Shown: positions 3,982-63,673, counted from the stretch's first letter. The stretch: DNA of 64,000 bases from an uncultured virus (IMG/VR IMGVR_UViG_3300035071_000047) (IMGVR_UViG_3300035071_000047); one strand, 5' to 3'. The notes: a model not told the origin generated them from the letters alone. A program made the numbers and translations.

Positions 3982-4524
3982 TCACGACCCGCCCCGCTTT
4001 GCCGTGCAGGTGTCCGCGGCCGCATCGAGCCCATCGCGCACGACCTGCTTGATCAGCGCGATCGCGGCGCGCTCGTCGCCGCCTCGACTCATGTTCATGT
4101 GGACGAGCGTCGCGACGCGTAGCGCGCGTTCGTCGTCGGTGGTAGCGGGGACGCCCGACTGGGCGTCGACGAAAGCGCCAGCAGCGGCGCCGCGAAGCGA
4201 TATTTTGGCCATGGTCTCCTCCTGGAACACGCATCCTCGATCGAATCGGTGGGCGGCGCGCGTGCGACGGCACGCGACGCAGAGGTCTTGGAGTGGCGAT
4301 CGGTTTCTCCACGGGCAGGCGCACACGTCGTCTGCCTCGGGGTCCGGGTCGAGCGGCTTGTAGCAACCGTACGCGTCGCGGCCGATCCCGCCATCTCCGA
4401 AGCAGATCGGCGTGTCCCAGTGCATGAGACCGCGCTCCTTGAGGCAGTACCCGCACCCGCACTCGCACGAGCCGCCGTACTCGCAGCTCCCGTGAGTGCC
4501 GTTGCAGTGGAAACCATTGCCCAT
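3982..4524 (-). CDS. Cys-rich hypothetical protein; possible internal start at 4212
   Basis: Many CxC/CxxC motifs in the N-half; GGAGGAG RBS before the in-frame ATG at 4212. Confidence 0.45.
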   Translation of the reverse strand: MGNGFHCNGTHGSCEYGGSCECGCGYCLKERGLMHWDTPICFGDGGIGRDAYGCYKPLDPDPEADDVCACPWRNRSPLQDLCVACRRTRAAHRFDRGCVFQEETMAKISLRGAAAGAFVDAQSGVPATTDDERALRVATLVHMNMSRGGDERAAIALIKQVVRDGLDAAADTCTAKRGGS

Positions 4525-5642: not shown

Positions 5643-6235
5643 AGCGCCTCCCCACTCTCTCGGTCGAAGGCGCGGCGAACTAGATGCGTGAGCAGCTTCC
5701 AGCTCTCCTGGCTCCCGTCGTATCGGAAGACGCGTCCGTGGTGGCGCGAGCCACCATCGGCGAAACTCGTGTTCCACGGCTGCGCGACGCAGACGACGAG
5801 GCCGTTCGGGCGCTTCGTGAGCCACGGTAGGAAGTACTCGGGCCAGTCGTCGACGAGGACGCGGCCGTACATGATCGACTTGTCCTGCGTGACGGTGACC
5901 GGCGTGCCCGGCAGGTGCGTCTGCGCCCACTGCAGCTTCTCGCCCCACGCGCTCGGGGCACCCGCGGGCCCTTTGGTCAGCACCATGAGGGAGAAGCCGA
6001 CCGTCTTGAGGTGGTGCGCGACGGTCATCCCGAGCGGGTGCTCGGGCAGGTCGCGCCAGAAGCCGGGGACCTGCTGGATCAGCTTCCGTCGGGCCGTCAC
6101 GTACGATGGCTCGTCGTCGCGATCGTAGGGTGACTCGATCGGCGCGCGGATGAAGGCGAGTCGCTCGCGCATGCCGCGGTCGTAGTCGACGACGGTGCCG
6201 TCCAGGTCGATGAGGGCGATCTTGTCGGTGTCCAT
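5639..6235 (-). CDS. HAD-superfamily 5'(3')-deoxyribonucleotidase-like protein
   Basis: LIDLDGTVVD motif I, GFWRDL, EKLQW, DKS...VLVDD, QPWN. Confidence 0.8.
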   Translation of the reverse strand: MDTDKIALIDLDGTVVDYDRGMRERLAFIRAPIESPYDRDDEPSYVTARRKLIQQVPGFWRDLPEHPLGMTVAHHLKTVGFSLMVLTKGPAGAPSAWGEKLQWAQTHLPGTPVTVTQDKSIMYGRVLVDDWPEYFLPWLTKRPNGLVVCVAQPWNTSFADGGSRHHGRVFRYDGSQESWKLLTHLVRRAFDRESGEAL

Positions 6236-12082: not shown

Positions 12083-13087
12083 ATGCGAACCGACGACCTC
12101 GACCCCACTCCGACCCCGCTCTCCGGGGCCCTCGTTGCCCCCTCGGGGGTGGGGTCCGAGCTCATTTCGCGACCTCGGCGCGACCCCAATCGAAATCCAG
12201 CGACGATCTTCATCGCCACGCGGCTCTCCGAGAGGAGCAAAGGGACGATGCGCGAGGCCCTCGAGCGCATCGCGAAGGTCCTCGAGCTCCCGATGACGCC
12301 CGAGGAGATCCCGTGGGAGACCTTCGGGTTCGAGCGTACGAGCTTCGTTCGTAGCCGACTCCTCGCCGCGTACGGCCCCTCCACGGTCAAGCTGACGCTC
12401 TCCGCTCTTAAAGGAGTGCTCCGAACCGCCCGGCGGCTCGAGCTCATCAACCACGAGCAGTTCGCGAATGCGACCGACTGGGAGAAGGTCAGGGGGAGCC
12501 GGTTGTCGCGTGGACGCGCGCTCTCGAGCGAGGAGATCGCAAAATTACTCGCGTTCTGCCGATCGCAGGCCGATCCCTACGGCGCGTTCCTCACGGCGCT
12601 CTTCTCGACCCTGATCGGGCTCGGTCTGCGCGCCAGCGAGACCTGCCAGCTCACCCTCGGCGCCTACGACGCGGACGCGCGTGTCCTGCGCGTCCTGCGC
12701 AAGGGAAACAAGGAGGTCGAGCTCGCCGTCACCGAGGAGGCCGCGGCGATCGACCGCTGGCTCGTCGTGCGCAAGACGCTCAACGTGAGCACACAGTGGC
12801 TGTTTTTGCGGCCGATGAAGGACGGCGGCCTGCGCGTGGTCCCCCCGAACGTGAAGGGCCTCCAGTACCTCTGCCAAGAGGTCGCGACCGGGGCCGACAT
12901 CAAGAAATTCAGCCCTCACGACTGCCGGCGGACGTTCGGGACGCGGCTCCTCGACCAGGGGATCGACCTGTCGACGGTGCAGCGCCTCATGAGTCACGAG
13001 AGCCCCGACACGACGGTCAGGTACGACAAACGGCAGGCGAAGACGGATGCCGAGACGCGCGCGCGAGTGAGGGTGCTCGGGTCATGA
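12083..13087 (+). CDS. Tyrosine recombinase/integrase (XerC/Cre-like)
   Basis: GLRASE (R), RKGNK (K), SPHDCRRTF (HxxR), MSHESPDTTVRYD (H, Y). Confidence 0.93.
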   Translation: MRTDDLDPTPTPLSGALVAPSGVGSELISRPRRDPNRNPATIFIATRLSERSKGTMREALERIAKVLELPMTPEEIPWETFGFERTSFVRSRLLAAYGPSTVKLTLSALKGVLRTARRLELINHEQFANATDWEKVRGSRLSRGRALSSEEIAKLLAFCRSQADPYGAFLTALFSTLIGLGLRASETCQLTLGAYDADARVLRVLRKGNKEVELAVTEEAAAIDRWLVVRKTLNVSTQWLFLRPMKDGGLRVVPPNVKGLQYLCQEVATGADIKKFSPHDCRRTFGTRLLDQGIDLSTVQRLMSHESPDTTVRYDKRQAKTDAETRARVRVLGS

Positions 13088-13533
13088 AGGTAGGTCCCAA
13101 AATTCCAGGCCGAAATGCGTCGAAACGTCACGAAGATCTCGTCGATCGGATTCGATGGCGCGCAGCTGAATATCTTCAGTCGTTCGGGTACGCGCTGGAG
13201 ATCGGTGGCGACTTCGTCATGATCCCAGGAGACGGTGGACTCGCGAGCTGTGGCCGCTGGGCCGCTCGTCCAGATGTTTGGGTTGTGTCCAAGTTGCTTA
13301 CTTATGGATCGATCGCTGTCGAGGTTGGCAGAACCAGCGAACCGGACAAGTGGCGAGGTGTTTGCCCTATGATTCACGTGAGTTTTCTTGGCGGCGTCGC
13401 CCTTTTTGATGGTTGTGGTGGGGCCTTTGAGACGGATGTCGTCCGGGCGATCTGTTGCGCCGTTGCTCCCGGAGAGCCCGATCAACGATCGCCGTTTTGG
13501 TGGCTCAAACAAGGCGCGGAGGATCGGTCATGA
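13084..13533 (+). CDS. Putative PD-(D/E)xK-like nuclease fold protein
   Basis: RPDVWV...IAVEVG; visibly more AT-rich than its flanks. Confidence 0.4.
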   Translation: MKVGPKIPGRNASKRHEDLVDRIRWRAAEYLQSFGYALEIGGDFVMIPGDGGLASCGRWAARPDVWVVSKLLTYGSIAVEVGRTSEPDKWRGVCPMIHVSFLGGVALFDGCGGAFETDVVRAICCAVAPGEPDQRSPFWWLKQGAEDRS

Positions 13534-20067: not shown

Positions 20068-20153
20068 GTAGTTACGGGATTCGTCCCGTTGGCGGACGTA
20101 TTGCAGAACGCCACTCTGCCGCGCACGCGGCCCACACCAAAAGGGGACCTACC

Positions 20154-21803
20154 ATGTCATACATTCTCGCAACCTCTCTCGCGTGCGTCCACGTGGACGA
20201 CGCGCACATGCTCGACGCGGCCGAGACGCTCCGGAACGGCGTCGACGGCACGGCGTCTCACCCCCTCGCGATCTGGCAAGTGTTCGCCGCTGGCGCGCCG
20301 CGGTCGATCGTGACGATCCCGGGGATCGGTCTACCCGATCCGCTTCCCACGCTCGCGACGTCGAGCGCGCCTGCCCCCGTTGCAGTGCCCGCGATCGCGT
20401 CCACGGAGCCGGCTCCCGCCCCCACGAGCGCCCCGGCGGACGACACCGCGCCCCCTAGCGCGCCCGCTCCGGTCGTCGCCGCGGGCGAGGTCGACCAGGT
20501 CGCGAAGGTGCGGATCGACGCGCAGCAAGCCGCGCTCCGCGCCGCGGGCGTCAAGGGGATCGGATACAAGGGTGAAGGGGGCGACGGCGAGCAGTTTTTC
20601 GCGAACGGTACCCGCATGATGGCGAGCGGGTACGACACGCAAGCGGCGCGCAAAGCGGAACATGACGCCATGATGGATCTTCGCGACGCGGCGGACGCAC
20701 TGGCCGATCGCGTGCGCGCCGAGAAGCGCCGTGACGAAGTCGTGACCGCGGGCGAGGTCGGCCGGTCGATCGTCGTGAACGGGAAGATCACCGCACTCGA
20801 CGGGTACGCCTTGGGCGAGCACGCGATCCGCGGCCTACTGCAACGGATCGATTCGGACGCGACGGGCTACGTCTTCGGTCTGCGCGAGCGGATCGCGCGC
20901 CTGGTCGGCGAGGCGAGCGCCGCGGGCGCGGACCGCGGCGCGATCCTGGCCGTCGCCGCCGAGGACAAGGCGAAGATCGCCGAGGTCTTGCAATACGAGT
21001 GCACGCGCCCGCACGTGCGCGACCAGCGCGTCACGATGCGTCTCCGCGACGCGGACCGCGACTGTTACGCTACGCTCGGTCCCAAGTACTCCGAGGCCGA
21101 CGCACCGCGGGCGATCGATCGGCTCTTCCCGCACCTCCCCCGCGGCGCAAAGGGATCCTGGTCGTACGACAAGGCGTCGACGCAGTGGGAGCTACGGTGC
21201 GAGACGTTCACGTCGACGCCCGTCGTCGACCAGGCCGTGGGCGAAGCCTACAGCGCGTACGCCTCTTTCACGTCGCGCGACAACGGGACGAGCCGCTTTC
21301 GTGGTGGAGGCGGGATCATGCTCCTCCGATGCCTTAACGCGAGCACGTACGCGGCCGACGTCTCCGAGGTCGCCCGCGTGCACCGCGGCGACGTACTCGG
21401 CGACGTGGGCGTCATGATGCGCGGCGCAATGGCCGCGATCACGACGCTCGCCACGGCGTGGGGGGAGAACCGCGAGACGGTGATCGTCGCCCCGGAAAAG
21501 GTCACCACGATCGAGGACGTCATTCCCGGCTTCTACCGCCATCTACTCCGCGATCGGTCGTCCGAATTGGTCGGCGTGCTCCCCGGCAAGGTGGAGGAGC
21601 ACGTCACGGGGCTGACGCGCGCCTTCGCGGGCGAGCGTCGCGACGCGGACCGTCTCGTGCGGTCCGACCTCGCGCAAGGGTGGACCCGCTACGTCCAGGA
21701 TCAGGCGAGCGACGTACGACGCGACGCAGAAGCCGCGATCGGTGCGTGGCTGGTCAACGGTCGACGCGTCGGGTGGACGGGCGCGCGCGAGGCGAGCCGC
21801 TAG
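20154..21803 (+). CDS. DUF932/DUF945-like domain protein
   Basis: YATLGPKYSEAD and SFTSRDNGTSRFRGGGGIMLLRCLNAST...RVHRG resemble the DUF932 core (NSHDGS...RxxCxN...H); start follows AAAAGGGGACCTACC. Confidence 0.6.
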   Translation: MSYILATSLACVHVDDAHMLDAAETLRNGVDGTASHPLAIWQVFAAGAPRSIVTIPGIGLPDPLPTLATSSAPAPVAVPAIASTEPAPAPTSAPADDTAPPSAPAPVVAAGEVDQVAKVRIDAQQAALRAAGVKGIGYKGEGGDGEQFFANGTRMMASGYDTQAARKAEHDAMMDLRDAADALADRVRAEKRRDEVVTAGEVGRSIVVNGKITALDGYALGEHAIRGLLQRIDSDATGYVFGLRERIARLVGEASAAGADRGAILAVAAEDKAKIAEVLQYECTRPHVRDQRVTMRLRDADRDCYATLGPKYSEADAPRAIDRLFPHLPRGAKGSWSYDKASTQWELRCETFTSTPVVDQAVGEAYSAYASFTSRDNGTSRFRGGGGIMLLRCLNASTYAADVSEVARVHRGDVLGDVGVMMRGAMAAITTLATAWGENRETVIVAPEKVTTIEDVIPGFYRHLLRDRSSELVGVLPGKVEEHVTGLTRAFAGERRDADRLVRSDLAQGWTRYVQDQASDVRRDAEAAIGAWLVNGRRVGWTGAREASR

Positions 21804-21917
21804 CCGCATCGCGAGAAGTGTAGGACGTCGCGAGGCCGCGAGCCTCGCGCGTCCGGGCGAGCCGATCCAGACTCTGGACGTCTCGCCCGGGCGCGAGCCC
21901 GAGCAAAAGGGGACCTC

Positions 21918-22172
21918 ATGTCTACAGAGACACCAGTGGCCAACGTGCCGCGCAAGCGCGACTATCGCGACGTCTGGCTTTGCGTCGACTGTACGATCTT
22001 GTCCGTCAACGGCGACGCGAGCGGGATCGATCCTGCGCGGCTCACGGCGTGTGAGTCGGGCCTGGATCGACTAGGCGAGATCTCGCCGAATTGGACGAAC
22101 GACGAAGAGAACGGTTGCGGCTCGCGACTCGCGGGCGAAATGCACCGGTTCGCCCATTGGGAGGCGTCGTGA
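21918..22172 (+). CDS. Hypothetical phage protein
   Basis: WLCVDC...NG...CGSRLAGEMH; AAAAGGGGACCTC leader. Confidence 0.65.
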   Translation: MSTETPVANVPRKRDYRDVWLCVDCTILSVNGDASGIDPARLTACESGLDRLGEISPNWTNDEENGCGSRLAGEMHRFAHWEAS

Positions 22173-22795
22173 GCGCCGCCCCCTGCGAACTCCGCGGCGA
22201 CGCCGCGCGGACGGTCCTGCGCGGACTGCGGCTCGCGGGCGCGTCGATCGTCGTCCAGCGTCGCTCGCACCACGCGAGCGACTGCGGCCACGAGATCCGC
22301 GGCATGTGCGAGCGCATGGGCGATTGCCGATGCCTGCGCGTCGCCCGCCTGCGCGTCCCGCGCGCGGGTGACTGGTTGCTGCTCTTCGGCGACTGCGCCG
22401 AGGGTCCGACGGTGCGCCTACAGGGCCCGTACACCGCAGAGACGCCGCTCACCTACGGCGGCGGATTTTGGGCAAAGGTGGAAGTGTGAGCCGGATAGCG
22501 ATCGACCTGTCGCCCGCGGCGTGCGAGCTACTCGAAACGGACGACGACGCCAAGCTAGCCATGCGCGGTCTTGCCGTGCACGGGGCCGCACTCCTCGCCA
22601 CGCGCGAGGCGTGGACCGCCGTGGCGGATGAATTCGAGACGCACTTCGCCTCGGGTGAGTACGTGACGGACAATCCAGGATCCGCCAAGCGGTGCGCACT
22701 CGCGGCCGCGAAGAAGATCCGCAAAGTGCTTGCCATCGGAATCAATAATGACTAACTTCTAGACGCTGGACACTGTCTAAAAAGGGGACCTACCA

Positions 22796-23236
22796 ATGCA
22801 CGAAGCCGTGCGACTGATCGTTGGAGCGCGAGGAGACTACCGTCGACGGAGCCATCCGATCGACGAGGCGTATACGTGGCTGGAGGCCGCGCGCGTCAAA
22901 GGGCTCGTGACGGTGCACGTCGCGAGCATCGGCGAGGTGGACCAGCATGAGAGCTGGACGCTGGCTCCCGTCTCGCCCGAACGCCACGCCACGCTGGCGA
23001 GGCTCGCGGACGGGATCCTGATCCACGCGGGACACCGGACGCTCGCCAGTGACTTGGAATGGCTCGTCGACGCCGGGCTCGCGGAGTGGGTCGACGTCGT
23101 CGTGACCTACCGCGACGCCGGAAACCCCGTCCGTAGCTCGCGCACGTGCGCGCAGATCACGAAGATGGGATCCGACGTGCTCGACTCGGGTGGCACGGTG
23201 CCCCGGTTCGAATTTCGACGCGGCGAAACTGTCTAA
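22796..23236 (+). CDS. Hypothetical protein, tandem paralog 1
   Basis: WTLAP...LARLADG..HAGHRTLASDLEWLVDAGLAEW, shared with the next gene. Confidence 0.75.
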   Translation: MHEAVRLIVGARGDYRRRSHPIDEAYTWLEAARVKGLVTVHVASIGEVDQHESWTLAPVSPERHATLARLADGILIHAGHRTLASDLEWLVDAGLAEWVDVVVTYRDAGNPVRSSRTCAQITKMGSDVLDSGGTVPRFEFRRGETV

Positions 23237-23254
23237 ATAAAAAGGGGACCTACC

Positions 23255-23659
23255 ATGCACGATGCGATCAAGGCGATCGTCCAGAACGACGGTAAGCCGC
23301 TCACGACGCGGAACGATACGAGCCCGCGCGGGCTCCTACGAACCTTGGAGGAAGGCGAGCGGCTCGGGCTCGTCCGCGCCTACCGGTCGTCGATCGGAGA
23401 GTCAAACGAGCGCGCCACGTGGACGCTCGTGGCGCCGAACGCCGCGCAACGCGCGGCGCTCGCGCGGCTCGGGGACGGCCTGATCGGTGCGGGACACCGC
23501 GCCATGGCGGACGATCTGAAATGGCTCGTCGACGCGGGACTCGCCGAGTGGTGCACCGTCCGCATTACCTACGCCAACGACAGTCGGGCGACCCTCACGT
23601 GCGCGACGTTGACGCCCGCGGGTGTCGCGGTGCGCGAAGCCGTTCCGGTGTCGACGTGA
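23255..23659 (+). CDS. Hypothetical protein, tandem paralog 2
   Basis: WTLVAP...LARLGDG..GAGHRAMADDLKWLVDAGLAEW. Confidence 0.75.
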   Translation: MHDAIKAIVQNDGKPLTTRNDTSPRGLLRTLEEGERLGLVRAYRSSIGESNERATWTLVAPNAAQRAALARLGDGLIGAGHRAMADDLKWLVDAGLAEWCTVRITYANDSRATLTCATLTPAGVAVREAVPVST

Positions 23660-26276: not shown

Positions 26277-26436
26277 CACTCGACCGGTGAGCCCACGTGG
26301 CTCGCCCGTCGAAGCGAACCGCTCGCCCGTCTATCTGCGCGCGCCCGTGACCGTCACCCCCTTTTCGGGCTCGGTCTCGCGCGGCCGCGCGGGCGGTTCG
26401 CTCCGGCGAACAACCGAAACAACGAAAGGGGACACC
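26277..26436 (+). other. Structured intergenic leader, putative cis-regulatory RNA
   Basis: 14-bp stem 26313-26326/26389-26402 (one GU) with inner helices; upstream hairpin TCGAC...GAGCC/GGCTC...GTCGA. Confidence 0.5.
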
Positions 26437-26766
26437 ATGTCGATCGATACCCTCATGGGTAAGAAACCGAACCGGATCGAGCGGATGGTCGGGATCGTCG
26501 AGGAGAGGCTGGCCGCGCTCGACGAGGCGAAGCGCGCCGAGATGACGAAGGCGCTCACGCTCACGCACGAGGAGCACTTCGCCTTCCAGACCGCGCAGTC
26601 GCACGCGCACGCGGGAGGTAAGCTCACGCTCGACGAGGCGCAGGCGGTCTACGCGGCGCTTGGCGGCGAGCAGTACGCGTCGACGGCCGACGGCTGGCCG
26701 GAGTCGACGACGCTCGCGATGCGTATCACCGTGACGAAACTCATGGGCGAGCTACTGAGGCACTGA
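26437..26766 (+). CDS. Hypothetical protein
   Basis: AAAGGGGACACC leader; helical ORF. Confidence 0.7.
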   Translation: MSIDTLMGKKPNRIERMVGIVEERLAALDEAKRAEMTKALTLTHEEHFAFQTAQSHAHAGGKLTLDEAQAVYAALGGEQYASTADGWPESTTLAMRITVTKLMGELLRH

Positions 26767-27980: not shown

Positions 27981-28311
27981 TTATCTGAATTCTGGACACT
28001 AAAAAAGGGGACCTGAACATGACGACGAAGCTGGACGAGGCGGAGCGCGACGTGGTGACGGCGCTTCTTCAGGTAGCTCACGCCGCGAGCACGCTGCTCG
28101 ACGAGTCAAAGAAAAAGACGGTCGACACGCGTACCGATCCGCTCGCTCGCGCGATCGCAGGTTCGGGGCGCGAGTGCCTCATCATCGTCCAGACGCGCGA
28201 CGCTGAGACGCTTCGCGCCGCGCTCGACGTCTGGCACGCGGCCGAGGACGTCCGCGCCGCCGAGATGGTTCGCGCGCTGCGCGGCGACGACGCGCCGGCC
28301 GGGGTGACGTC

Positions 28312-33295: not shown

Positions 33296-35160
33296 GTCGC
33301 CACTCGACACCGTCGAAGTCGGCATTACGTTCGAAACGGGGACCTAGCATGAAGGACACGTACATTCGCTTTCGCAGTCCGTCCGAGCGGATCGCGGCGG
33401 CCGGCGGAGCGGGTCGGGCGATGCTCGCGCGACGATGCTTCACCGTTCGTTTCTTCACCGGGTGGTTCAAGTGCTGCGACGACGGCAACTGCCGCGAGTG
33501 CCCGCCGAAGACGTACAACACGATCGACGAGGCGCTCGCGGACATCCACCGTCGTCCGTCGTGGGGGTGGTCCGCCGCCGACGTCTTCTCGGCGACGGTC
33601 ATCCCGCACGGCGATGACGATCGGCCCGACTACGTGGTCGGCACGATCGTCGCGAACGGGCAGGTCGGCGAGTTCGAGGTTGCATCGTGAGCCGCCTCCA
33701 CCTCGTCCCGCCCGGCTCAAACGTATGCAACTGGCAGACCGAGTACGGCACGGCAGGGTCTCCGAAGTACTGCAGCAAGCCGGCCGGCAGAGACGGCATG
33801 TGCGCCGGCCACCGGCGCGACTGGCGCGAGCTGTACCCGCACCTCCCGCTACCGAAGTTCATGTCACGCTCGGACGTTCGACGGATCTACACGTTCGACG
33901 TCGAGGTCTACGATCCCGAGGCGGACGACTTCGACCTCGTCGGCTCCGTCCTCCTGCCCGACCACGCGCTCCGCCACGAGGTCGAGCACGCGCTGGCAGC
34001 GGTCGGCGTCTACTGCCCGAGGGGCGCCGACGAGCTGACGTGGGAGGTCGCCAGCGGGGCGCGTGTCACCGTACGCGACGGATTCCTGTCGTGGGACGCG
34101 CCGTCTGACGACCCGATCGGCCTCATCCACGACGGCGATGGGCGCATCTTGGTCCGGATGTACGGGAGGACGTCGTGAGGTACGTCGCCAAGCCAGGGTG
34201 GGACACGCCCGAGTCGCGCGCGTGGCTACGCGAGCAGTTCGAGTTCGTCGTCTGCGAGGAGTGCCGTCGCGGCGAGCGGGCGCACGTCGCCGTCAACTTC
34301 GGTCTCGACCCGTTTGCGCTCTGCCGGCCAACCAAGCAAACGAATGAGCTGTCGCCGATGCAGGCGATCGTGTTTCAGAGGTTGCCGTGAGCGGCGTGCG
34401 ATCGATCAACCGGGCCGTCGAGGAGGCCGTGCAATGACGACGGAATCTGTCGAGGAGATCCGCGCGCGATTCGAGCGCGAGACGTGGGGGATCTGGGTCA
34501 CGATGGCCGACGGTAGCGGGAAGTGGTCCGAACGTAGCGGCTATCCGGTCACGTACACCGAGGAGCAGGCAAACGAAGCTCTGCAGCACGTCGTCTCGCC
34601 ACCAGGCGGCATATGCAGGGAAGCGCGTCCATTTCCGAAAGTGAGCCCCGGCAGCCGCGAGGACCGGCTACAGCAGTTTCTTCTCGACCACGGCCGCATC
34701 GTCGTGGCCCCGTTCGGCCACGGCGAGACCATCGAGCGATTCGCTCGCGTGGCCGTCGATTCGGACGGCGACGTCGCCTGGACGACGCACGAGGAGATTC
34801 ACGACGCGTCCGACTCTGCCCTGGCGGATCTGATGCAGGGCTGGGCGTGCGACGGTCTGATCGATCTGGACACCGGCTACCGCTACGAACTGGTCGTACG
34901 CGGCAACTGGGAGAGGAAGTACTGATGCCTCGCTACATCGTCACGAAGATCCAGTCGGCTAGTGCCGCATACGTGTGGGTCGTCGACGCCAGGTCGCGGC
35001 GCGCGGCCACAAAAGCGTCAAAGGACGGACCGCCAGTGTTCGCAAAAGAACTATACGCGGTAGAGTCTAGCGACATCACCGTGGAATTGGAGCACGTCTC
35101 CAAGCCGAGGCCGAAGCGAAGTAGGCGTGGCGTTTTCAACGGTAGACGGGTTGGGCGGCC

Positions 35161-35877
35161 ATGATCCACGGAGCTGGCGCCGTGACCGTCCACGCAAATT
35201 GCGGCGTCGACGCGTGCAACCTCTGTCGCAAGCGCGACGGAGACGACATGCAGGACGCCTTCACGGCAGACCTCGCGACCGGAGACGTCGTCTGCCAGGA
35301 GTGCTGGACGCCCGAGGAGATCGCGGCGATCGAGGCCGCCGAGGACGGGTCCACCGTCGAGGTCTTCCGCGAGTACTCGCACGGCTGGGACACGCCGCTC
35401 GTCTGCGAACGGTGCCACCTCGCTATCCCCGTCTACCTCGACGCGAAGCCGAGCCCGGACGACGCGGAGACGCAGCGCGTGTGGGATGCGATGAACATCC
35501 GCTGGCGCGCGCGCGACGACAAAGAAGAGCTGTACCTCCGCCGGTGCTCGGAGCTGTCGGCACAGCAGCTCCTTGACGAGCTTGGTGTCCCGCGCGGCAT
35601 CCTGTCGCTGAACGGGCGCCTGCACCACCTGCGCCTACGACTGGAGACGACGACGACGGACGCGAAGCCCGTCCGCGTGGACCTCGCAGCCGACGCCGAC
35701 CTCACGGCGCTCGCGAGCGCGCTGCCCGTGGGGGCGTGGGTGCCCGCGACGAGCGGCGTGTCGATCGACTGCGGTCCCATCCGCCTGCGGTGCGAAGGGG
35801 GTAGTCGCGAGGAGAAGGTGGCGCTCGTCCGGTTCCTGAAGGCCGTGCGCGACGCGATGACGAGAGGTGCGCCGTGA
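35161..35877 (+). CDS. Cys-containing hypothetical protein
   Basis: VCQECW...LVCERCH. Confidence 0.55.
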   Translation: MIHGAGAVTVHANCGVDACNLCRKRDGDDMQDAFTADLATGDVVCQECWTPEEIAAIEAAEDGSTVEVFREYSHGWDTPLVCERCHLAIPVYLDAKPSPDDAETQRVWDAMNIRWRARDDKEELYLRRCSELSAQQLLDELGVPRGILSLNGRLHHLRLRLETTTTDAKPVRVDLAADADLTALASALPVGAWVPATSGVSIDCGPIRLRCEGGSREEKVALVRFLKAVRDAMTRGAP

Positions 35878-36342
35878 GGGCCGCCATCACGTACAGCGTC
35901 GAGAACCTCCCGCACCCCTTCGACGAGAAGCAGCGCGCGCAGGGGATCCACGCGTGGTGTATCGTGAAAAACGTCCAGCCTGCGATGGGGATCGCGACGG
36001 CGGAGCCCGTCGCGTACTTCAACTTCGACAGCGAGGCGAAGACGTTCCAGGGACACGTCCTCGCGGAGGGCCTCGACGGCAGGCTCGTCACGATCGATCG
36101 CGACATGCGGGAGTTCCTCCTGCGCTTCCGCACGGAGATCCCGTGAGCGGGGGCGCCGACGAGTACCGCAAGGACGGCGAGCCGGCCACGATCGACCTCG
36201 CGCGCGCGCGAAAGTTCGCGCAGATGTACGCACCGACCGCCGATGACCACGCGGTGGACCAGCTCGCCAAGATGCTGGCCCACGTCTACAACGAGGGCTG
36301 GGCCGACGCGCGGTGCGCCGACCGAGACGACGGGAGATCGAC

Positions 36343-36837
36343 ATGAACCGCTTCCTCTTCCTTTTCCTAGCTTCCTGCGGCGGCTCCGCGTTCACGACGC
36401 TCGAGGCGACGCCGCCCGCGAGCTCTCCGGACGCGGCGACCGCCTCCGACGGCGGAGTCGCCGCCGACGCGGGGACGGGCGCGAACGTCGCGGACGGTGG
36501 ACACCCCATCACGGCCCACGACGCAGCCGCCGCCGGGTCGTCCGACGCGGTCGCGCCGGACGCGGCGTCGATCTGCTCACCCGTCCCGACCCCGGGACCC
36601 GCGTGGGCGTGCGGCTCGCAGATCGAGCAGGGGTACTACGTCTTCTGCGTCGTCAACTCGCCCTTCGGCGAGTCCGAGGAGGCGATGCCGCCGACCTGCC
36701 GCGCGTGCATGGAGTTGTTCACGTGCGAGTGCCTGATCGACGCGATCAAGACGAACGTCCCGCACCCGTGCGGCACCGGCGTCGTCCCGAGCTGCACGCT
36801 GCTCGCGAAGGGGGAGGTAAGCGTCACCTGTCCGTAG
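36343..36837 (+). CDS. Putative lipoprotein with Cys-rich C-terminus
   Basis: MNRFLFLFLASCGG lipobox, DA/DG-rich linker, about 10 Cys. Confidence 0.7.
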   Translation: MNRFLFLFLASCGGSAFTTLEATPPASSPDAATASDGGVAADAGTGANVADGGHPITAHDAAAAGSSDAVAPDAASICSPVPTPGPAWACGSQIEQGYYVFCVVNSPFGESEEAMPPTCRACMELFTCECLIDAIKTNVPHPCGTGVVPSCTLLAKGEVSVTCP

Positions 36838-36838
36838 T

Positions 36839-36966
36839 TTCGTCCGTCCGAGTCGACGCCGGCCCATCGCGCCTTATGCGGAGCGTCGAGGGTAATAGGT
36901 CCCCACCCGTTTCCTTTCACGGCGTGGAAGCCGCGCGATGTGCCGGCGTCGACTCGGGAGAACGAA
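36839..36966 (+). ncRNA. Putative structured small RNA / long hairpin element
   Basis: CCGAGTCGACGCCGGC-C-CATCGCGC (36848-36872) pairs with GCGCGATG-T-GCCGGCGTCGACTCGG (36933-36957), 24 of 25 bp, enclosing two small hairpins; intergenic. Confidence 0.55.
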
Positions 36967-36968
36967 CG

Positions 36969-37301
36969 ATGAAAACAAGAACGAGACCCGATCCGCCTTG
37001 CTGCTCGGATGCCATCAAGTGGCTCCGGGCACGCAGGATCGACCTCGGGTCGCTCACCGGCCAGGACGCCCGCGCGCTCGCCGCGATCGCTCACTGCTGG
37101 CGCCTCTACGCCTCGTCTGATGACGACGGGCGGCGTGCGGCGATCGACGCGATTCGTGCGCTCTGCCTCGCGATGCAACCGAAGTGTTGGGTGTTCGCGC
37201 GCGAGCTGATCCCATACGAACTCGACTGGAGCGATACCGATCGACTGTGGCCGCACCCGCCAGACGGAGATATCCGGTATCTGCCTCCGAGATTGCCATG
37301 A
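36969..37301 (+). CDS. Hypothetical protein
   Basis: GGGAG RBS; LTGQDARALAAIAHCWRLY. Confidence 0.6.
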   Translation: MKTRTRPDPPCCSDAIKWLRARRIDLGSLTGQDARALAAIAHCWRLYASSDDDGRRAAIDAIRALCLAMQPKCWVFARELIPYELDWSDTDRLWPHPPDGDIRYLPPRLP

Positions 37302-37777
37302 AGAGCGCCGTTTTAGCCGTCTCACTCCTCGCATGTGCGCCAACGATTGGTGCACTCCAGATCACGACGACGTCCGCGACGAGCACGGGTGAGCGCGCCA
37401 TCCAGGCCGCCGCGATCGCGATCGACGCGGACCGTCGGTATCTGTCCGGACAGCCGGCCGCGGCGGGGGACGCCGGCCGCGCCGCGTTCCGCGCCGCGTG
37501 CCTCGAACGTCAAGTCGACCGCGAGATGCTGCTCGACCAGCTCCACTCGCGCGCGCAGGTCCACGCCTTCGCGTGGAAGGACTGGTACGAACGACACTGC
37601 GTCCCGCTCGGTCTGCCCGACGGCACGTTCGTCGCGCTGGCGGAGACCGGCGCCGACGCCTCCGCGGCGTACCTCTGTCCCGCGAGCGCGGGCGCGCCAC
37701 CGACGCGCGCGTACGAGCGAAGCGACGAGGAGAGGCTCGCGCAGCAACAGCGCGACGCGTGCGAGGCGGCGCAGTGA
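37298..37777 (+). CDS. Putative lipoprotein
   Basis: MKSAVLAVSLLAC lipobox-like signal. Confidence 0.55.
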   Translation: MKSAVLAVSLLACAPTIGALQITTTSATSTGERAIQAAAIAIDADRRYLSGQPAAAGDAGRAAFRAACLERQVDREMLLDQLHSRAQVHAFAWKDWYERHCVPLGLPDGTFVALAETGADASAAYLCPASAGAPPTRAYERSDEERLAQQQRDACEAAQ

Positions 37778-38114
37778 GCGAAACATTTCTATGGAGGAGC
37801 GTCGGCGTCGCCGAGTGGAGCCTACTTCGCCCGATGACGGCCGAGGAGATTGACGACGTTGGCAGGTTCCTGCGATCGCTCGGTCACGACGTCCGCGTCC
37901 ATCGGACGGACTCGGGCTACATCTACTGGAGCTTCTTCGACACGGGCGTCGATGAACCGACTCGGCTGAGTCTGCAACCTCAGATCGCGATGCGTCTGGA
38001 CCACCTCTTTCGAAAGGACGTGGAGATGCCGACCTTGCATTGGGACGGTGTACGCGTGCGCGTCGACGCCGTCCGCGCCCTGAACGAGCACGTCCAATAG
38101 CGATAGAGGATCAA

Positions 38115-59097: not shown

Positions 59098-60014
59098 CGA
59101 ACCGCTGGCTCGACAAGGCGACGATCTACACGGCCGCGTACGCGCGTGTGTTCGGTGCGGCACCCAGCCGACACGGCGTCATGTTCGGCCTGTCGGTCGC
59201 CGAACACGAGACTCGCTGCGGCGACGCGCTCGGCGGCAACTGGGGCGGCACGACCGCGGGCCAGCTCACCCCCTACGACCGCGCTGCCCTGCGAGCGGCG
59301 GGACTTTCGCCGTCCAACGAGGCCGACCTGCCCAAGGCGCAAGCTCTCCTCGGTCCGCGACCCAACATGATCCTCGGTCGCGACACGTCGGCCCAGAGCG
59401 GGTGGTACTGGATCTGGTTCTTCCATCCGGCCACGCCCGTCGATGGCGCCGCGTACTTCGTGAAGGTGCTGCTGCAGCAGCGACCCGCCTGTCGCGCCGT
59501 CGTCGACGACCCGACCGGGACGCTCGACGCGCTCGCGCGCGCCATGTACGCCTCGCACTACTTCCTCGGGGTCTTCAACCCGCACGCCGTCGTCACCTAC
59601 AAAGGCAAGCAGATGCCGGGAGACGAGGCGAACATCGAGGCGTACCGCGACGCGATCGTCGCGATCGAGCAGGTCATCGAGGAGAGCCTCGCGGGCTGGG
59701 TCCCCAACGGACCGACGACTGTCCCGACGGAGCCGCCGTTCGACCTGTACGAGGTGATCGGCTACCAGGCGGCCCTCACGTGGCTCGCGCGGAAGATGGG
59801 TCACCCCGAGTTCGATCCGAGAGGGGTCGACGGCGACGCGGGGACCAAGACGCGCGCCGCCGTCCACGAGTTCCAGACCTACGTCCGCCTCCCGATCGCC
59901 CTGACCCCGGCTGCGGGACACATGGACGAGTCCACGCGCATCGCGCTCGTGAAGGCGATCGAGATGGCGTCGCCCGCCACGACACCAGCGCCGCCTCCCA
60001 TCCCATCGACCTGA
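59094..60014 (+). CDS. Endolysin-like protein: putative lysozyme-fold domain plus peptidoglycan-binding domain
   Basis: AEHETRCG...NWGG...DGAAYFVKVL...LARAMYASHYF; C-terminal YQAAL...GVDGDAGTKTRAAVHEFQ...GHMDESTRIAL. Confidence 0.7.
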   Translation: MTNRWLDKATIYTAAYARVFGAAPSRHGVMFGLSVAEHETRCGDALGGNWGGTTAGQLTPYDRAALRAAGLSPSNEADLPKAQALLGPRPNMILGRDTSAQSGWYWIWFFHPATPVDGAAYFVKVLLQQRPACRAVVDDPTGTLDALARAMYASHYFLGVFNPHAVVTYKGKQMPGDEANIEAYRDAIVAIEQVIEESLAGWVPNGPTTVPTEPPFDLYEVIGYQAALTWLARKMGHPEFDPRGVDGDAGTKTRAAVHEFQTYVRLPIALTPAAGHMDESTRIALVKAIEMASPATTPAPPPIPST

Positions 60015-60563: not shown

Positions 60564-60682
60564 CCCAATGATCCTCTCTCGGTCCACAATCTCGCGACCG
60601 CGCCGGACGCTCGTCCGTCGCGGTCGCTCGTGGATCGCCTCGTCTCGACCCACGCCTCGACTGACCACGAAGGAGAACTGCG

Positions 60683-63673
60683 ATGTCACTCGTTCCCACC
60701 CAGATCGTCTACGGCGGCCCGTCGGGACTGCAGGCTCAGGATGCGGCGCTCGCGTGGGACGACACCCACAAGACGATGAGCATCGGCGCCATCGGGATCG
60801 TCGCGAGCATCCTGTTCAACCCAGGGGTACCGCTGGCGCGCATCCTCGTGGGGACGCCGACCTCGGACGTACCCACCGCTGACATCCTCGTCCAGGCGCA
60901 GGCCCCGTTCGCGAGCGCGTCCGTCAACCAGACGCCGGGGAACATCAACCTCAACATCCCCGCGCCCATCGGCGGGGCGGCCCACAGCGGCATCAACCTC
61001 CAGGACAGCGGCGTCACGTGGCTGACGTTCCAGCGGACCGCGTCGCTGTCGAACATCTCGTTCGCGGCCAGCGGGTCGCCCAAGCTGAGCCAAGCGGTGC
61101 GTGTGTCCGGAAATGGACAGCAGTTCCTCTTCCAGGCGCAGACCGCGTCCCAGGCCAACGGGATCGGCGGAAACCTGGTCATGGACGGCGGCGACGCGCC
61201 CGGCATGAACGGCGTCGGCGGGCAGATGATCCTGACCGGCGGGTTCGGCGCCGCGACGGGCGGCAACGTCCAAGTCACGGGCGGACAGGGCGGCGTCACG
61301 GGCGGAAGCATCCTCTTCAACTCGGGCGTCGGACCCAACGCGGGGAGCGTCCTGTTCGGATCGGGCGGCACCATCTGGCTCTCGTTCAAGAACACGGGCG
61401 GGTCGACGAGCATGCAGCTCTCCTCGACCGCGCCGCATTTCACGTTCAACCAAGTGGCCGCGACGAGCGGCGCTGGTGTGCCATGGGTCATTGCGGCCCA
61501 GAGCACGTCGGCGGTGGCCGCGGGCGGGAACATGTCCCTGCAGGCCGGCAACTCGACCGGCATCGGAGGCACGGGCGGCAACCTCCTCCTCTCCGCCGGC
61601 AACGGGTCCACGCCGGGCAGCACACAGATGCAGACCGGCGGCAACACATGGCTCACCTTCGCGAACGCCGGTGGTTCCTCTGGTCTCCTGTTCGCGGAGA
61701 CGGCGCCACTGCCCGTTATCCGGCAGCTCGTCGCCACCGCAGCCCCTGGCGCGCAGCTCACGATCGCCTCTCAGAGCTCGTCCAGCGTCGGCCTGGCCGG
61801 CGGACCGCTCCTCCTCACCTCGGGCACCGGCGGAGGCGCGAGCGGCAATGGTGGCAACATCACCATCCTCGCAGGGAGCGGCGGATCGGGTAGCGGTGCG
61901 AGCGGGAGCATCCTGCTGAGCACAGGCAGCGGGGTCACGGATGGATCCATCCAGCTCCAAAAGTTCGGGACGACGTGGCTGACGTTCGCGACGGCCACGG
62001 GCGCCACCTTCGCTACCACAGCTCCGACGCCGACCGTGTCCCAGGCCACCACCAGTACTGGAAACGGCGCAGTATTCACGATCCGAGCGCAGTCCACGAC
62101 CGCCGCGAACGCTACGGGCGGCGTACTGTTCTTGACCGCCGGATCCAACACGGCAGGAACGAACGGTATCGGTGGCGACGTGATCGTTGCGGCCGGCGCA
62201 GGAAAGAACACGAGCACCGGAGCAGGAGGAAACATCGTCCTTGCCGTGGGTAACGGGTTCACGCACGGCAGCGTCCAGGTTCAGGACTCAGGCTCGACTT
62301 GGCTCACCTTCTCAGCCGTCGGCTCGGCCACCGTCACCTTCTCTCCTACCGCGGTCACGCCGTCCATCGGACAAGCCAACACGTCTTCTGGCAGCGGAGC
62401 CCTGCTCAGTCTCTACGCGCAGACTACGACGGCCGCAGGGGCCACTGGAGGGAATCTCCTCCTCTCTGCCGGGTACAACACGGTCGGAACCAACGGAATG
62501 GGAGGTGACGTCGTCATCACTTCCGGCGCTGGCAACGGCGCCGGCTCCGGCGCGGGTGGGCGCGTCATCCTCAACGCGAGCGGCGGCGCCACCGCGGGCG
62601 TCATCCTGTTCCAGGCTGCGGGCACGACGTGGCTCACGTTCTCCAAGACCGGATCGAGCACCAACGTCACCTTCAACTCCAACGCTCCGGCCGTGACGAT
62701 CTCCCAGGGAACCACGACGTCGGCGAGCGGCGTCACCATGGCCATCACGGCGCAGGGCACGTCGTTCGGCGGAGGCGTCGGCGGCAACCTGAGCGCTTCG
62801 GCCGGATCGAGCAGCGCTGGCGTCGGCGGCAACCTACTGCTCAATCCTGGCCACGGAACAACGAACGGCGACGTCCAGATCTTCGACGGTAGCAGCAACC
62901 TCGTCTTCCGCGTCGACGGACCCAACCGAACCAACAAGGTCAGTGGTCCACTCATCGGCGACAGCACGACGAACGACTCGCTCCGGTTCGGCGTCACGAC
63001 GCCGATCAGCCTCGCGGGCCGTTCGACGGACCTCACGCTGACGAACGTGCAGTACGCGAACCAGACCATGACGTTCAACGGGACGCCCGCGGCGGCGACC
63101 TTCAACCTCGTCCTGCCGAACGTCGCCGGGTTCACCAAGGTCTTCGACCTCACCTCGGTCACCCCGGGCGTCGCCACGATCTCGGCCAAGGCCGGGACGT
63201 CCTCCGTCCTGCTGTCGCCCGGACGCGCCACGACCGTCTGGTACGACGGGACCACGTTGCACGCGCTCACGGGGGCCGGACTCGTCGAGACGGATTCCGC
63301 GACCGATACGGGCGTCTCGCTCGTCATCGGCCCGTACACGACCCTGGTGGCCTCCGGCGTCTCCGTGACGCTCGCCGCGGGCGAGAAGCTCATCATCGAC
63401 GTGGCGAGCCTGCTGAACACGGCTGGATCCGGGGCCGGAACACTGGCCGCGCAGTACCAGGTCACGGTGGACGCGTCCGTCGTGTCGCACGACGCGATCT
63501 CCACGGACAATACGAGGACCGGGTACAACCAGCCCTACGCGCGGTCGATCGAGGTCACGGGCCTCTCCGCCGGAACGCACACGGTCGACTTCCAGGCCCG
63601 CACCGACAACACGAGCACGGCGACGTACATCGCGAACAACAACTCGCTCCGCGTCATGCGGTCGGCTGCGTGA
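60683..63673 (+). CDS. Gly/Thr/Ser-rich repetitive tail-fibre/adhesin-like protein
   Basis: Six repeats anchored on GxTWLTF, GGNLxLxAG motifs, C-terminal LSAGTHTVDFQAR; AAGGAG RBS. Confidence 0.75.
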   Translation: MSLVPTQIVYGGPSGLQAQDAALAWDDTHKTMSIGAIGIVASILFNPGVPLARILVGTPTSDVPTADILVQAQAPFASASVNQTPGNINLNIPAPIGGAAHSGINLQDSGVTWLTFQRTASLSNISFAASGSPKLSQAVRVSGNGQQFLFQAQTASQANGIGGNLVMDGGDAPGMNGVGGQMILTGGFGAATGGNVQVTGGQGGVTGGSILFNSGVGPNAGSVLFGSGGTIWLSFKNTGGSTSMQLSSTAPHFTFNQVAATSGAGVPWVIAAQSTSAVAAGGNMSLQAGNSTGIGGTGGNLLLSAGNGSTPGSTQMQTGGNTWLTFANAGGSSGLLFAETAPLPVIRQLVATAAPGAQLTIASQSSSSVGLAGGPLLLTSGTGGGASGNGGNITILAGSGGSGSGASGSILLSTGSGVTDGSIQLQKFGTTWLTFATATGATFATTAPTPTVSQATTSTGNGAVFTIRAQSTTAANATGGVLFLTAGSNTAGTNGIGGDVIVAAGAGKNTSTGAGGNIVLAVGNGFTHGSVQVQDSGSTWLTFSAVGSATVTFSPTAVTPSIGQANTSSGSGALLSLYAQTTTAAGATGGNLLLSAGYNTVGTNGMGGDVVITSGAGNGAGSGAGGRVILNASGGATAGVILFQAAGTTWLTFSKTGSSTNVTFNSNAPAVTISQGTTTSASGVTMAITAQGTSFGGGVGGNLSASAGSSSAGVGGNLLLNPGHGTTNGDVQIFDGSSNLVFRVDGPNRTNKVSGPLIGDSTTNDSLRFGVTTPISLAGRSTDLTLTNVQYANQTMTFNGTPAAATFNLVLPNVAGFTKVFDLTSVTPGVATISAKAGTSSVLLSPGRATTVWYDGTTLHALTGAGLVETDSATDTGVSLVIGPYTTLVASGVSVTLAAGEKLIIDVASLLNTAGSGAGTLAAQYQVTVDASVVSHDAISTDNTRTGYNQPYARSIEVTGLSAGTHTVDFQARTDNTSTATYIANNNSLRVMRSAA

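Follow-up and report, generated by a model that had tools for sequence, protein, structure and literature searches.

Several well-described systems bear on the interpretation of a long hairpin placed exactly between two genes. The early mRNA of phage T7 and the N leader of phage lambda carry RNase III processing hairpins with long imperfect stems, whose cleavage can free a ribosome site. In Neisseria, Correia-type MITEs are intergenic elements, about 100-150 bp in length, that end in long inverted repeats, and they are RNase III substrates when transcribed. The c4 RNA of phages P1 and P7 and the CI RNA of satellite P4 have loops that pair with repeated sites at ribosome-binding regions, and RNAs of the c4 type are processed by RNase P, not RNase III.

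According to the available text of PMC12548453, translational coupling by RNA unfolding is known across positive intergenic spacings, with rpmI-rplT at +52 nt and f1 VII-IX as cases, and in a library screen predicted structure just 3' of the upstream stop codon correlated negatively with coupling. The start-associated sequences (SAS) of Cluster K mycobacteriophages were described by Pope et al. (2011; PMC3203893), in whose main text the carrier genes are for the most part separated from the gene upstream by over 50 bp. Their function is still called unknown in the available text of papers from 2024-2025 (PMC11373665, PMC12699233), and in our literature searches, the supplementary figures S3 and S4 of PMC3203893 aside, an RNA partner for these sequences was named in no paper found.

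The hairpin considered here lies in an uncultured soil element, represented by the window (the whole stretch of 64,000 nt that was analysed, IMGVR_UViG_3300035071_000047). It is high-GC DNA (G+C 63-73 %) that encodes a tyrosine integrase, two DNA methyltransferases, an ATP-dependent ligase, two HNH endonucleases and sigma-factor-like genes, the rest being ORFans. A PHROGs scan for virion genes matched no capsid, portal or terminase family among 91 ORFs, and 'phage' is therefore a plausible label and no more. The gene map of the window is heuristic and based on GC3; on this map every predicted gene from ~12 kb onwards is on the + strand, so that + strand RNA is the expected one, and the majority of these genes have a 4-nt overlap with a neighbour. 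No part of the 12-52 kb region shows an enrichment of canonical promoters or terminators.

Two other features of the window are recorded here in their own right. Four 32-nt direct repeats at 1119-1315 (78-100 % alike, spacing 47-67 nt) sit in the gap that precedes the DNA methylase gene 1314-2120 of the minus strand and look like an iteron or operator array. A 996-aa ORF (60683-63673) has five copies of a ~325-nt internal repeat and no PHROG or Pfam match, and its product is possibly a fibre or beta-helix type of protein.

Anatomy and predicted fold of the hairpin

The hairpin is formed by an inverted repeat (36839-36872/36933-36966) with 34-nt arms that are 88 % complementary and 60 nt apart, 128 nt in total, and it is the longest among the 35 inverted-repeat pairs in the window whose arms are at most 200 nt apart. 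The locus is made up as follows.

36343..36837, + strand: upstream gene; start at 36343 or 36313 (uncertain), Cys-rich C-terminus, GC3 0.93
36839..36872, + strand: left arm of the inverted repeat, with its core at 36848-36872
36873..36932, + strand: interior of 60 nt, with two small hairpins in the predicted fold (36873-36890 and 36898-36932)
36896..36904, + strand: TAGGTCCCC, which is exactly reverse-complementary to the leader core GGGGACCTA; some of its bases are paired in the predicted fold
36933..36966, + strand: right arm of the inverted repeat, with its core at 36933-36957
36956..36961, + strand: Shine-Dalgarno sequence GGGAGA of the downstream gene, 7 nt 5' of its ATG and within the base of the stem
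36969..37301, + strand: downstream gene of 110 aa, a conserved small-protein family without a name; overlaps the next gene by 4 nt

The original prediction described an intergenic element closed by a stem of 24 of 25 bp (36848-36872/36933-36957), and both points hold. The core has 24 pairs in 25 positions, with C36864/T36941 as the lone mismatch, and the hairpin fills the 131-nt gap between the upstream stop codon TAG (36835-36837) and the downstream ATG (36969), leaving a single T on the left and CG on the right; that is, it begins 2 nt past the stop codon and ends 2 nt before the start codon. The ATG at 36969 is backed by a 40-sequence family alignment that includes 39 homologues of the 110-aa product, and the gap has a GC3 of 0.63-0.70 in all three frames compared with 0.85-0.93 for the flanking genes, indicating that it is non-coding. 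Neither flanking gene has a Pfam or PHROG match, and the Atlas yielded no usable one. On the GC3-based map the neighbouring junctions on the left (35874, 36143 and 36343) and on the right (37298 and 37774) are all 4-nt overlaps, and the hairpin gap, as the sole junction in the run 35182-38100 that lacks one, is thus the only break in a tightly coupled chain of genes.

The + strand of the hairpin has a folding energy of -77.0 kcal/mol (z -6.9), with none of 200 shuffles as good, and the minus strand one of -76.9 kcal/mol (z -7.7); the single G-U pair in the structure gives no discrimination between the strands. In the predicted fold G36956-G36958 and G36960 of the Shine-Dalgarno sequence have an unpaired probability of about 0, with or without 60-nt flanks, so that the folded RNA would bring the stop and start codons next to each other and conceal the ribosome site. 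The core together with the outer pairs exceeds the roughly two turns (at least 20 bp) of near-perfect double-stranded RNA that an RNase III substrate calls for. Within the interior, the apical loop UUCCUUUC (36911-36918) is the most accessible part of the hairpin in the predicted ensemble. Two interior hairpins had been proposed, and the minimum-energy fold does contain two, but the GGGT/ACCC hairpin that was to expose the antisense motif in its loop is not one of them: forcing it costs +6.0 kcal/mol, and three bases of the motif are paired with probability above 0.9.

The region 36500-37300 contains no terminator-like site, the interior is 60 nt long and no T-run follows 3' on either strand, so the hairpin is not a canonical intrinsic terminator; no sigma-70-like promoter was found near the hairpin on either strand. 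A search of the whole window against Rfam gave no match at gathering score, and 36700-37100 gave only chance-level matches at E values up to 10, among which a match to MIR918 (28 bits, the gathering score being 268) was rejected as a generic match to a long hairpin. Other intergenic GC-rich hairpins that lack U-tails and come soon past stop codons are present in the window at 21848-21895, 26307-26408 and 60594-60627.

A leader motif at gene starts and its antisense copies

The motif GGGGACCTA is present in five copies in the window where 0.18 are expected, and none of 100 shuffles reaches five. Its four + strand copies (20143, 22784, 23244 and 33338) each lie 2-3 nt ahead of an ATG, the same four ATGs (20154, 22796, 23255 and 33349) named in the original prediction, which was also right that the interior of the hairpin holds an exact reverse complement. 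This lone minus-strand copy, at 36896-36904, is not followed by a start codon, as had been noted, the nearest ATG being 27 nt off. The shorter form GGGGACCT (nine copies against 1.92 expected) leads six ATGs at a spacing of 1-4 nt, including those at 21918 and 28019, where the 8-nt match reported earlier is indeed found; two more copies, at 6065 (+) and 53452 (-), fall within coding DNA. The 8-mer AAAAGGGG is likewise over-represented, with six copies against 0.37 expected. In a wider form, AAAAGGGGACCT(ACC), the leader ends 0-4 nt before the ATGs at 20154, 21918, 22796, 23255, 28019 and 33349, and when the variant AAAGGGGACACC, which precedes the ATG at 26437, is included, all seven leaders end 0-4 nt before an ATG. 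These leaders, and two further features that carry antisense segments, are:

20139..20153, + strand: leader AAAAGGGGACCTACC, abutting ATG 20154 of a 550-aa gene with a 662-nt gap upstream
21905..21917, + strand: leader AAAAGGGGACCTC, ahead of ATG 21918
22779..22795, + strand: leader AAAAAGGGGACCTACCA, ahead of ATG 22796
23239..23254, + strand: leader AAAAAGGGGACCTACC, ahead of ATG 23255 (tandem paralogue of 22796)
26425..26436, + strand: variant leader AAAGGGGACACC, ahead of ATG 26437
28002..28018, + strand: leader AAAAAAGGGGACCTGAAC, ahead of ATG 28019
33338..33348, + strand: leader GGGGACCTAGC, ahead of ATG 33349
13089..13098, + strand: second antisense copy GGTAGGTCCC, 1 nt past the integrase stop codon, in an unstructured stretch
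26307..26408, + strand: second large intergenic hairpin, with 23-nt arms (83 %) and a 56-nt interior, upstream of the AAAGGGGAC-led gene 26437

All seven leader genes come after a gap and not an overlap, the gaps being 662, 114, 40, 18, 160, 38 and 53 nt on the heuristic map (four of the seven above 50 nt), and other genes use GGAGG or GGAGA. No shared promoter-like block was found upstream of the leader motif, and the tight spacing of the sense copies, 1-4 nt from the ATG, argues for a role at the RNA level. A stretch of 101 nt is 71 % identical between the genes 22796-23236 and 23255-23659; since they are tandem paralogues, each with a full leader, their two motif copies are not independent. 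Among the relatives GGGGACCT does not act as a start motif (eight copies in 227 kb, none of them adjoining a start), and the 18-nt sequence of leader plus ATG has no match in IMG/VR.

The motif resembles the start-associated sequences of Cluster K in several respects. As those are presented in the main text of PMC3203893, the leader AAAAGGGGACCT(ACC) shares with them the character of a short asymmetric motif a few nucleotides before starts (an ATG in seven of seven cases). It is also conserved beyond the Shine-Dalgarno core, sits on non-structural genes that follow gaps, and has a nearly single orientation, with a rare opposite-strand copy that is not tied to a gene start. It differs in that the consensus given in that text, GGGATAGGAGCCC, is unrelated to GGGGACCTA and lies beyond the two deviations allowed for a start-associated sequence (PMC3203893); there are also only seven copies here, and no 17-bp inverted-repeat ESAS lies upstream. 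Given its different sequence, the leader motif is an analogue of the start-associated sequences and not a member.

In Mycobacterium phage Anaya the lone opposite-strand SAS (L065:39871-39883) falls within a 10-nt loop at the apex of a hairpin predicted between gp96 and gp97 (hairpin region L065:39850-39900, positions 59849-59899 of the record). No reverse SAS with at most two mismatches was found in Pixie, Kratio or Unicorn, and the reverse SAS of ZoeJ is the ordinary SAS of a leftward gene. With one of five Cluster K subcluster representatives having a reverse SAS in a hairpin loop, we rejected such an arrangement as a general rule, and the Anaya case is therefore a curiosity.

The complementarity of the hairpin 9-mer to the leader stops at 9 nt, and in the predicted ensemble much of the 9-mer is occupied: the GGU of UAGGUCCCC has an unpaired probability of only 0.03-0.09, being paired with 36930-36932, the last two C's of the motif are mostly paired, and opening the 9-mer costs 5.25 kcal/mol. 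An interaction search of the start regions had been proposed as a check, and in a search of this kind the 17-nt segment 36892-36908 does pick out the six GGGGACCT leaders as the best six of 83 (-17.3 to -20.1 kcal/mol, the next being -14.8), a ranking that follows largely from how the motif was found. The apical loop UUCCUUUC with its closing bases can pair with AAAGGGGAC over 9 bp including two G-U pairs, and among the same 83 start regions the best target of 36909-36920 is the variant leader at 26437 (-14.2 kcal/mol against -11.5 for the next). When the whole interior was scanned for duplexes the leader genes were not singled out; 80 of 82 start regions reached -14 kcal/mol or better, compared with a mean of 77.7 for shuffled interiors.

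Further antisense segments lie elsewhere in the window. Read on the minus strand, the 13089 copy has the look of a full leader, TTTTGGGACCTACC-TTC-ATG, and is followed by an ORF of only 22 codons that runs antisense to the 3' end of the integrase gene. The apex of the 26307-26408 hairpin contains, as CCCCTTTT (26358-26365), the one copy of the leader 8-mer AAAAGGGG that lies on the minus strand, and carries CCCCCTTTT, which is complementary to the 5' half of the leader. All six copies of the 8-mer GGGACCTA, both strands counted, fall in non-coding DNA.

We counted + strand loci from 12 kb on that contain at least 8 nt of the reverse complement of the 16-nt leader. Five such loci (13089, 13400, 26358, 36896 and 42675) fall in 6.8 kb of non-coding DNA and two in 45 kb of coding DNA; the 13400 locus looks like the tail end of a small hairpin with a T-run behind it. 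Two of the loci stand out, 13089 in its unstructured stretch and 36896 within the hairpin. Relative to permuted 16-mers the non-coding count is 5 against a mean of 0.60 (P 0.003) for fragments of at least 8 nt and 2 against 0.13 (P 0.012) for those of at least 9 nt, and an intergenic-DNA shuffle control gives P 0.006 and 0.01, respectively; homopolymer runs within the leader motif bias these exact-word controls. Across the whole window, fragments of at least 9 nt number 2 against 0.54 expected (P 0.1). When loci are counted by energy, with G-U pairs allowed, there are 2 against 0.27 at -18 kcal/mol (P 0.05), with no significant enrichment at looser cut-offs (P 0.26 at -16.5, 0.44 at -15 and 0.28 at -13 kcal/mol). 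The enrichment of antisense fragments is thus a real-looking but modest signal, and one that does not by itself identify a mechanism.

Distribution of the hairpin and of its neighbouring genes

The hairpin region is present in five soil-metagenome DNA runs, and no RNA run was among those listed. Both arms with their flanks show no differences in Logan contigs from two other soil runs, and for the interior (36861-36941) the sole source is the assembly of the window itself; in runs X2-X5 the stretch 36872-36938 has no coverage. Logan contigs from two soil runs end within the left arm, one at 36856 and the other at 36860, and in one of the runs the sequence starts again at 36942, the base right after the only mismatch in the arm core; this break (36856-36942) could be a drop in coverage at a strong hairpin or could mark a variant interior.

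The hairpin is lineage-specific and single-copy, because neither IMG/VR nor a set of 185,579 species genomes has a match to its exact arm-gap-arm pattern and the window contains no second copy of an arm with fewer than two mismatches. The loop 22-mer also has no match in IMG/VR, and blastn-short comparison of the arms with the window and 61 related loci gave nothing above chance (the best matches being 13-nt words, E 0.1-0.4). None of the collections searched contained a close relative. DNA similarity searches of GenBank phages with 36000-38000 gave no match; an 847-aa protein had none by tblastn against phages or in an IMG/VR scan, and the flanking proteins gave only weak, non-syntenic matches in IMG/VR (L001-L003), none with a hairpin.

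The 110-aa product of the downstream gene has a much wider distribution. Among 5.8 billion proteins it has relatives in 39 other clusters, the best of them 62 % identical, and a relative is encoded at 58 metagenome loci and three MAG loci (L004-L064), from soil metagenomes and from MAGs labelled Gemmatimonadaceae, Actinomycetota and Myxococcales. Residues T30, D33, W87 and W94 are invariant in the family. When 14 neighbouring genes were tested, only the 36969 gene had homologues in the 58 related loci and the other 13 were not shared; the family has different neighbours at each locus, a moron-like behaviour. We surveyed 54 usable loci (51 metagenome and three MAG), leaving out seven of the 58 metagenome loci that have less than ~140 nt upstream (L013, L015, L024, L056 and L059-L061). 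None of the 54 has a comparable hairpin within 400 nt upstream of the homologue, the best inverted-repeat score being 21 in the window and at most 13 upstream of the homologues; the downstream gene family therefore has no need of one.

Very large palindromes are found on two of the related contigs. L010 has a palindrome at 144-379 with an 83-nt perfect inverted repeat and a 70-nt spacer, and L020 has, at 4020-4203, a hairpin with 35-nt arms placed 2 nt past a stop codon, followed by a palindrome with 14-nt arms and the loop GTAGGACCTAG. A kinship of the L020 hairpin to the window arm was considered and rejected, the match being a 13-nt word (E 0.4) with many equal matches elsewhere.

Candidate roles of the hairpin

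The anatomy points first to a role in cis, since the Shine-Dalgarno sequence of the downstream gene is held in the stem. The account we tentatively favour, while giving it somewhat less than an even chance, is that the hairpin acts in cis as an RNA structure between cistrons, where it couples or gates translation and probably serves as a substrate of RNase III. Under it a lineage-specific, self-folding spacer would act in cis on a polycistronic + strand mRNA, and translation of the 110-aa gene would depend on melting by ribosomes, on RNase III cleavage, or on both. Ribosomes ending at the TAG at 36835 would melt the outer stem that holds the Shine-Dalgarno sequence, as in translational coupling by 'RNA unfolding', and host RNase III would cut the 25-bp core, so that the halves of the operon transcript separate and the Shine-Dalgarno sequence is freed. 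A terminating ribosome should reach far enough to open the outer pairs of a stem that begins just past the stop codon, and a stem of 24/25 bp is long enough for RNase III, being a substrate of textbook length. We infer transcription, ribosome-dependent opening and cleavage of the hairpin, and the antisense 9-mer in its interior would be an incidental or at most a secondary feature.

Such a cis role is consistent with the exact filling of the gap, with the Shine-Dalgarno sequence in the stem base and with the position of the hairpin at the only break in an overlapping gene chain. It also accords with the expectation of a + strand RNA, with the non-coding GC3 of the gap and with the occurrence of similar hairpins without U-tails past stop codons, both in the window and, 2 nt past a stop, on L020. 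The cases of RNA-unfolding coupling covered in the available text of PMC12548453 (rpmI-rplT, f1 VII-IX and MS2 coat-lysis) share with this locus co-directional genes and a downstream ribosome site held in a stable structure, the opposite strand of which is supplied by the end of the upstream frame. Here the Shine-Dalgarno sequence is inside a stable predicted helix and the left arm starts 2 nt past the stop; the differences are a spacing of +131 nt and a far larger and more stable predicted structure (-77 kcal/mol). Compared with the RNase III hairpins of T7 and lambda, there is just one such site in 64 kb, and its cleavage is a prediction.

Several observations fit a cis role less comfortably. 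If the terminating ribosome opens the outer pairs only, the 25-bp core stays closed, and a 128-nt structure of -77 kcal/mol far exceeds what is needed to mask a Shine-Dalgarno sequence. The negative correlation between structure past the stop and coupling in the library screen, as given in the available text, points the same way (PMC12548453), as does the absence of the hairpin from 54 of 54 usable homologue loci, and a cis role explains neither the exact antisense 9-mer nor why antisense fragments are enriched.

The exact antisense 9-mer is what the original prediction sought to account for with an RNA acting in trans. In an extended form of that idea, the stem would be cut from the operon transcript, and two segments of its C/U-rich interior, UAGGUCCCC and the apical UUCCUUUC, would pair with the private leader AAAAGGGGACCUA at the ribosome-binding regions of seven genes and block or tune their translation, the segments at 13089 and 26358 being further anti-leader sites; we consider this doubtful, if the least doubtful of the alternatives to a cis role. 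The exact 9-nt complement, the top six ranks of 83 taken by the GGGGACCT leaders for 36892-36908, and the seventh, variant leader (26437) as best target of the loop 36909-36920 all speak in its favour. So do the position of the only minus-strand AAAAGGGG at the apex of the second large hairpin and the excess of antisense fragments in non-coding + strand DNA (P 0.003-0.05 depending on the test). The P1 c4 RNA, which the available text of PMC8198154 treats as an antisense RNA from the operon under its control, is a precedent, and the likeness would extend to a small structured RNA borne on the same operon transcript as its targets. The comparison with c4 and CI is qualified by the lack of an Rfam match to the hairpin, by the proposed processing by RNase III, and by the position of the 9-nt complement, which matches six leaders exactly though it lies outside the predicted open loop.

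Several results count against an anti-leader RNA: part of the motif is paired and its opening costs 5.25 kcal/mol, the GGGT/ACCC hairpin lies 6 kcal/mol above the minimum, and complementarity ends at 9 nt. The enrichment is also weak when counted by energy (P 0.05 at -18 kcal/mol and 0.26-0.44 at looser cut-offs) or as fragments of at least 9 nt in the whole window (2 against 0.54, P 0.1), the exact-word controls are biased by homopolymer runs, and the hairpin has no promoter, terminator or Rfam family. The anatomy is thus best explained by a cis-acting structure, with a regulatory RNA possible but not favoured by the predicted fold. A more specific proposal, that the RNase III-excised hairpin would be the RNA partner of the SAS-like motif, with UAGGUCCCC/UUCCUUUC and the 13089 and 26358 segments pairing with AAAAGGGGACCUA so that seven genes are switched down together, is in our view unlikely.

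It is similarly improbable that the hairpin is a palindromic insertion at the DNA level, that is, a MITE-like or recombination-derived foldback at a mosaic junction of two gene modules, which would have no RNA function and be tolerated since it folds out of the mRNA. Its 34-nt terminal inverted repeats (88 %) around a 60-nt core, 128 nt in all, are reminiscent of Correia MITEs. It lies at a junction where synteny ends (one of 14 neighbouring genes has homologues in the 58 loci), the downstream gene family is found in many unrelated contexts, and large palindromes are present in the related contigs L010 and L020. Correia elements differ, however, in that this hairpin is single-copy, without a second copy of its arm in the window or the 61 related loci, and belongs to no family in the collections scanned, its arm-gap-arm pattern being absent from IMG/VR and the 185,579 species genomes. 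The flanks (GTAGT/CGATG) show no target-site duplication, and a placement from stop+2 to start-3 with a Shine-Dalgarno sequence inside one arm looks selected.

Least probable by a clear step is a reverse-oriented module, in which GGGACCTA would be a DNA site, active in either orientation, for a phage regulator or a minus-strand transcript start antisense to the upstream gene, or the interior an invertible segment between the 25-bp arms: the confinement of all six GGGACCTA copies to non-coding DNA on either strand, the full leader with an ATG 3 nt on at the minus-strand 13089 copy and the Logan contigs of two runs that break in the arms, compatible with a variant interior, are outweighed by the lack of a start codon past the 36904 copy, an ORF of only 22 codons at 13085, no sigma-70-like promoter on either strand, the 1-4 nt spacing of the sense copies that suggests an RNA-level role, contigs in which no strand-changing joint is reported at the hairpin, and a 60-bp spacer that is very short for recombinase-mediated inversion.

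If the hairpin acts only in cis, as we tentatively prefer, it would be a neat though unremarkable instance of translation or processing gated by structure within the operon of a mobile element. Actinophages have been known to carry start-associated sequences since 2011, and a private start motif that resembles them is present in an uncultured high-GC soil element unrelated to the Cluster K phages. Should the antisense copy be functional, an operon-embedded RNA complementary to the start motif would offer a directly testable mechanism; and were the hairpin truly the partner of the motif, it would amount to an anti-RBS RNA regulon encoded by a phage and might answer the question of what start-associated sequences bind.
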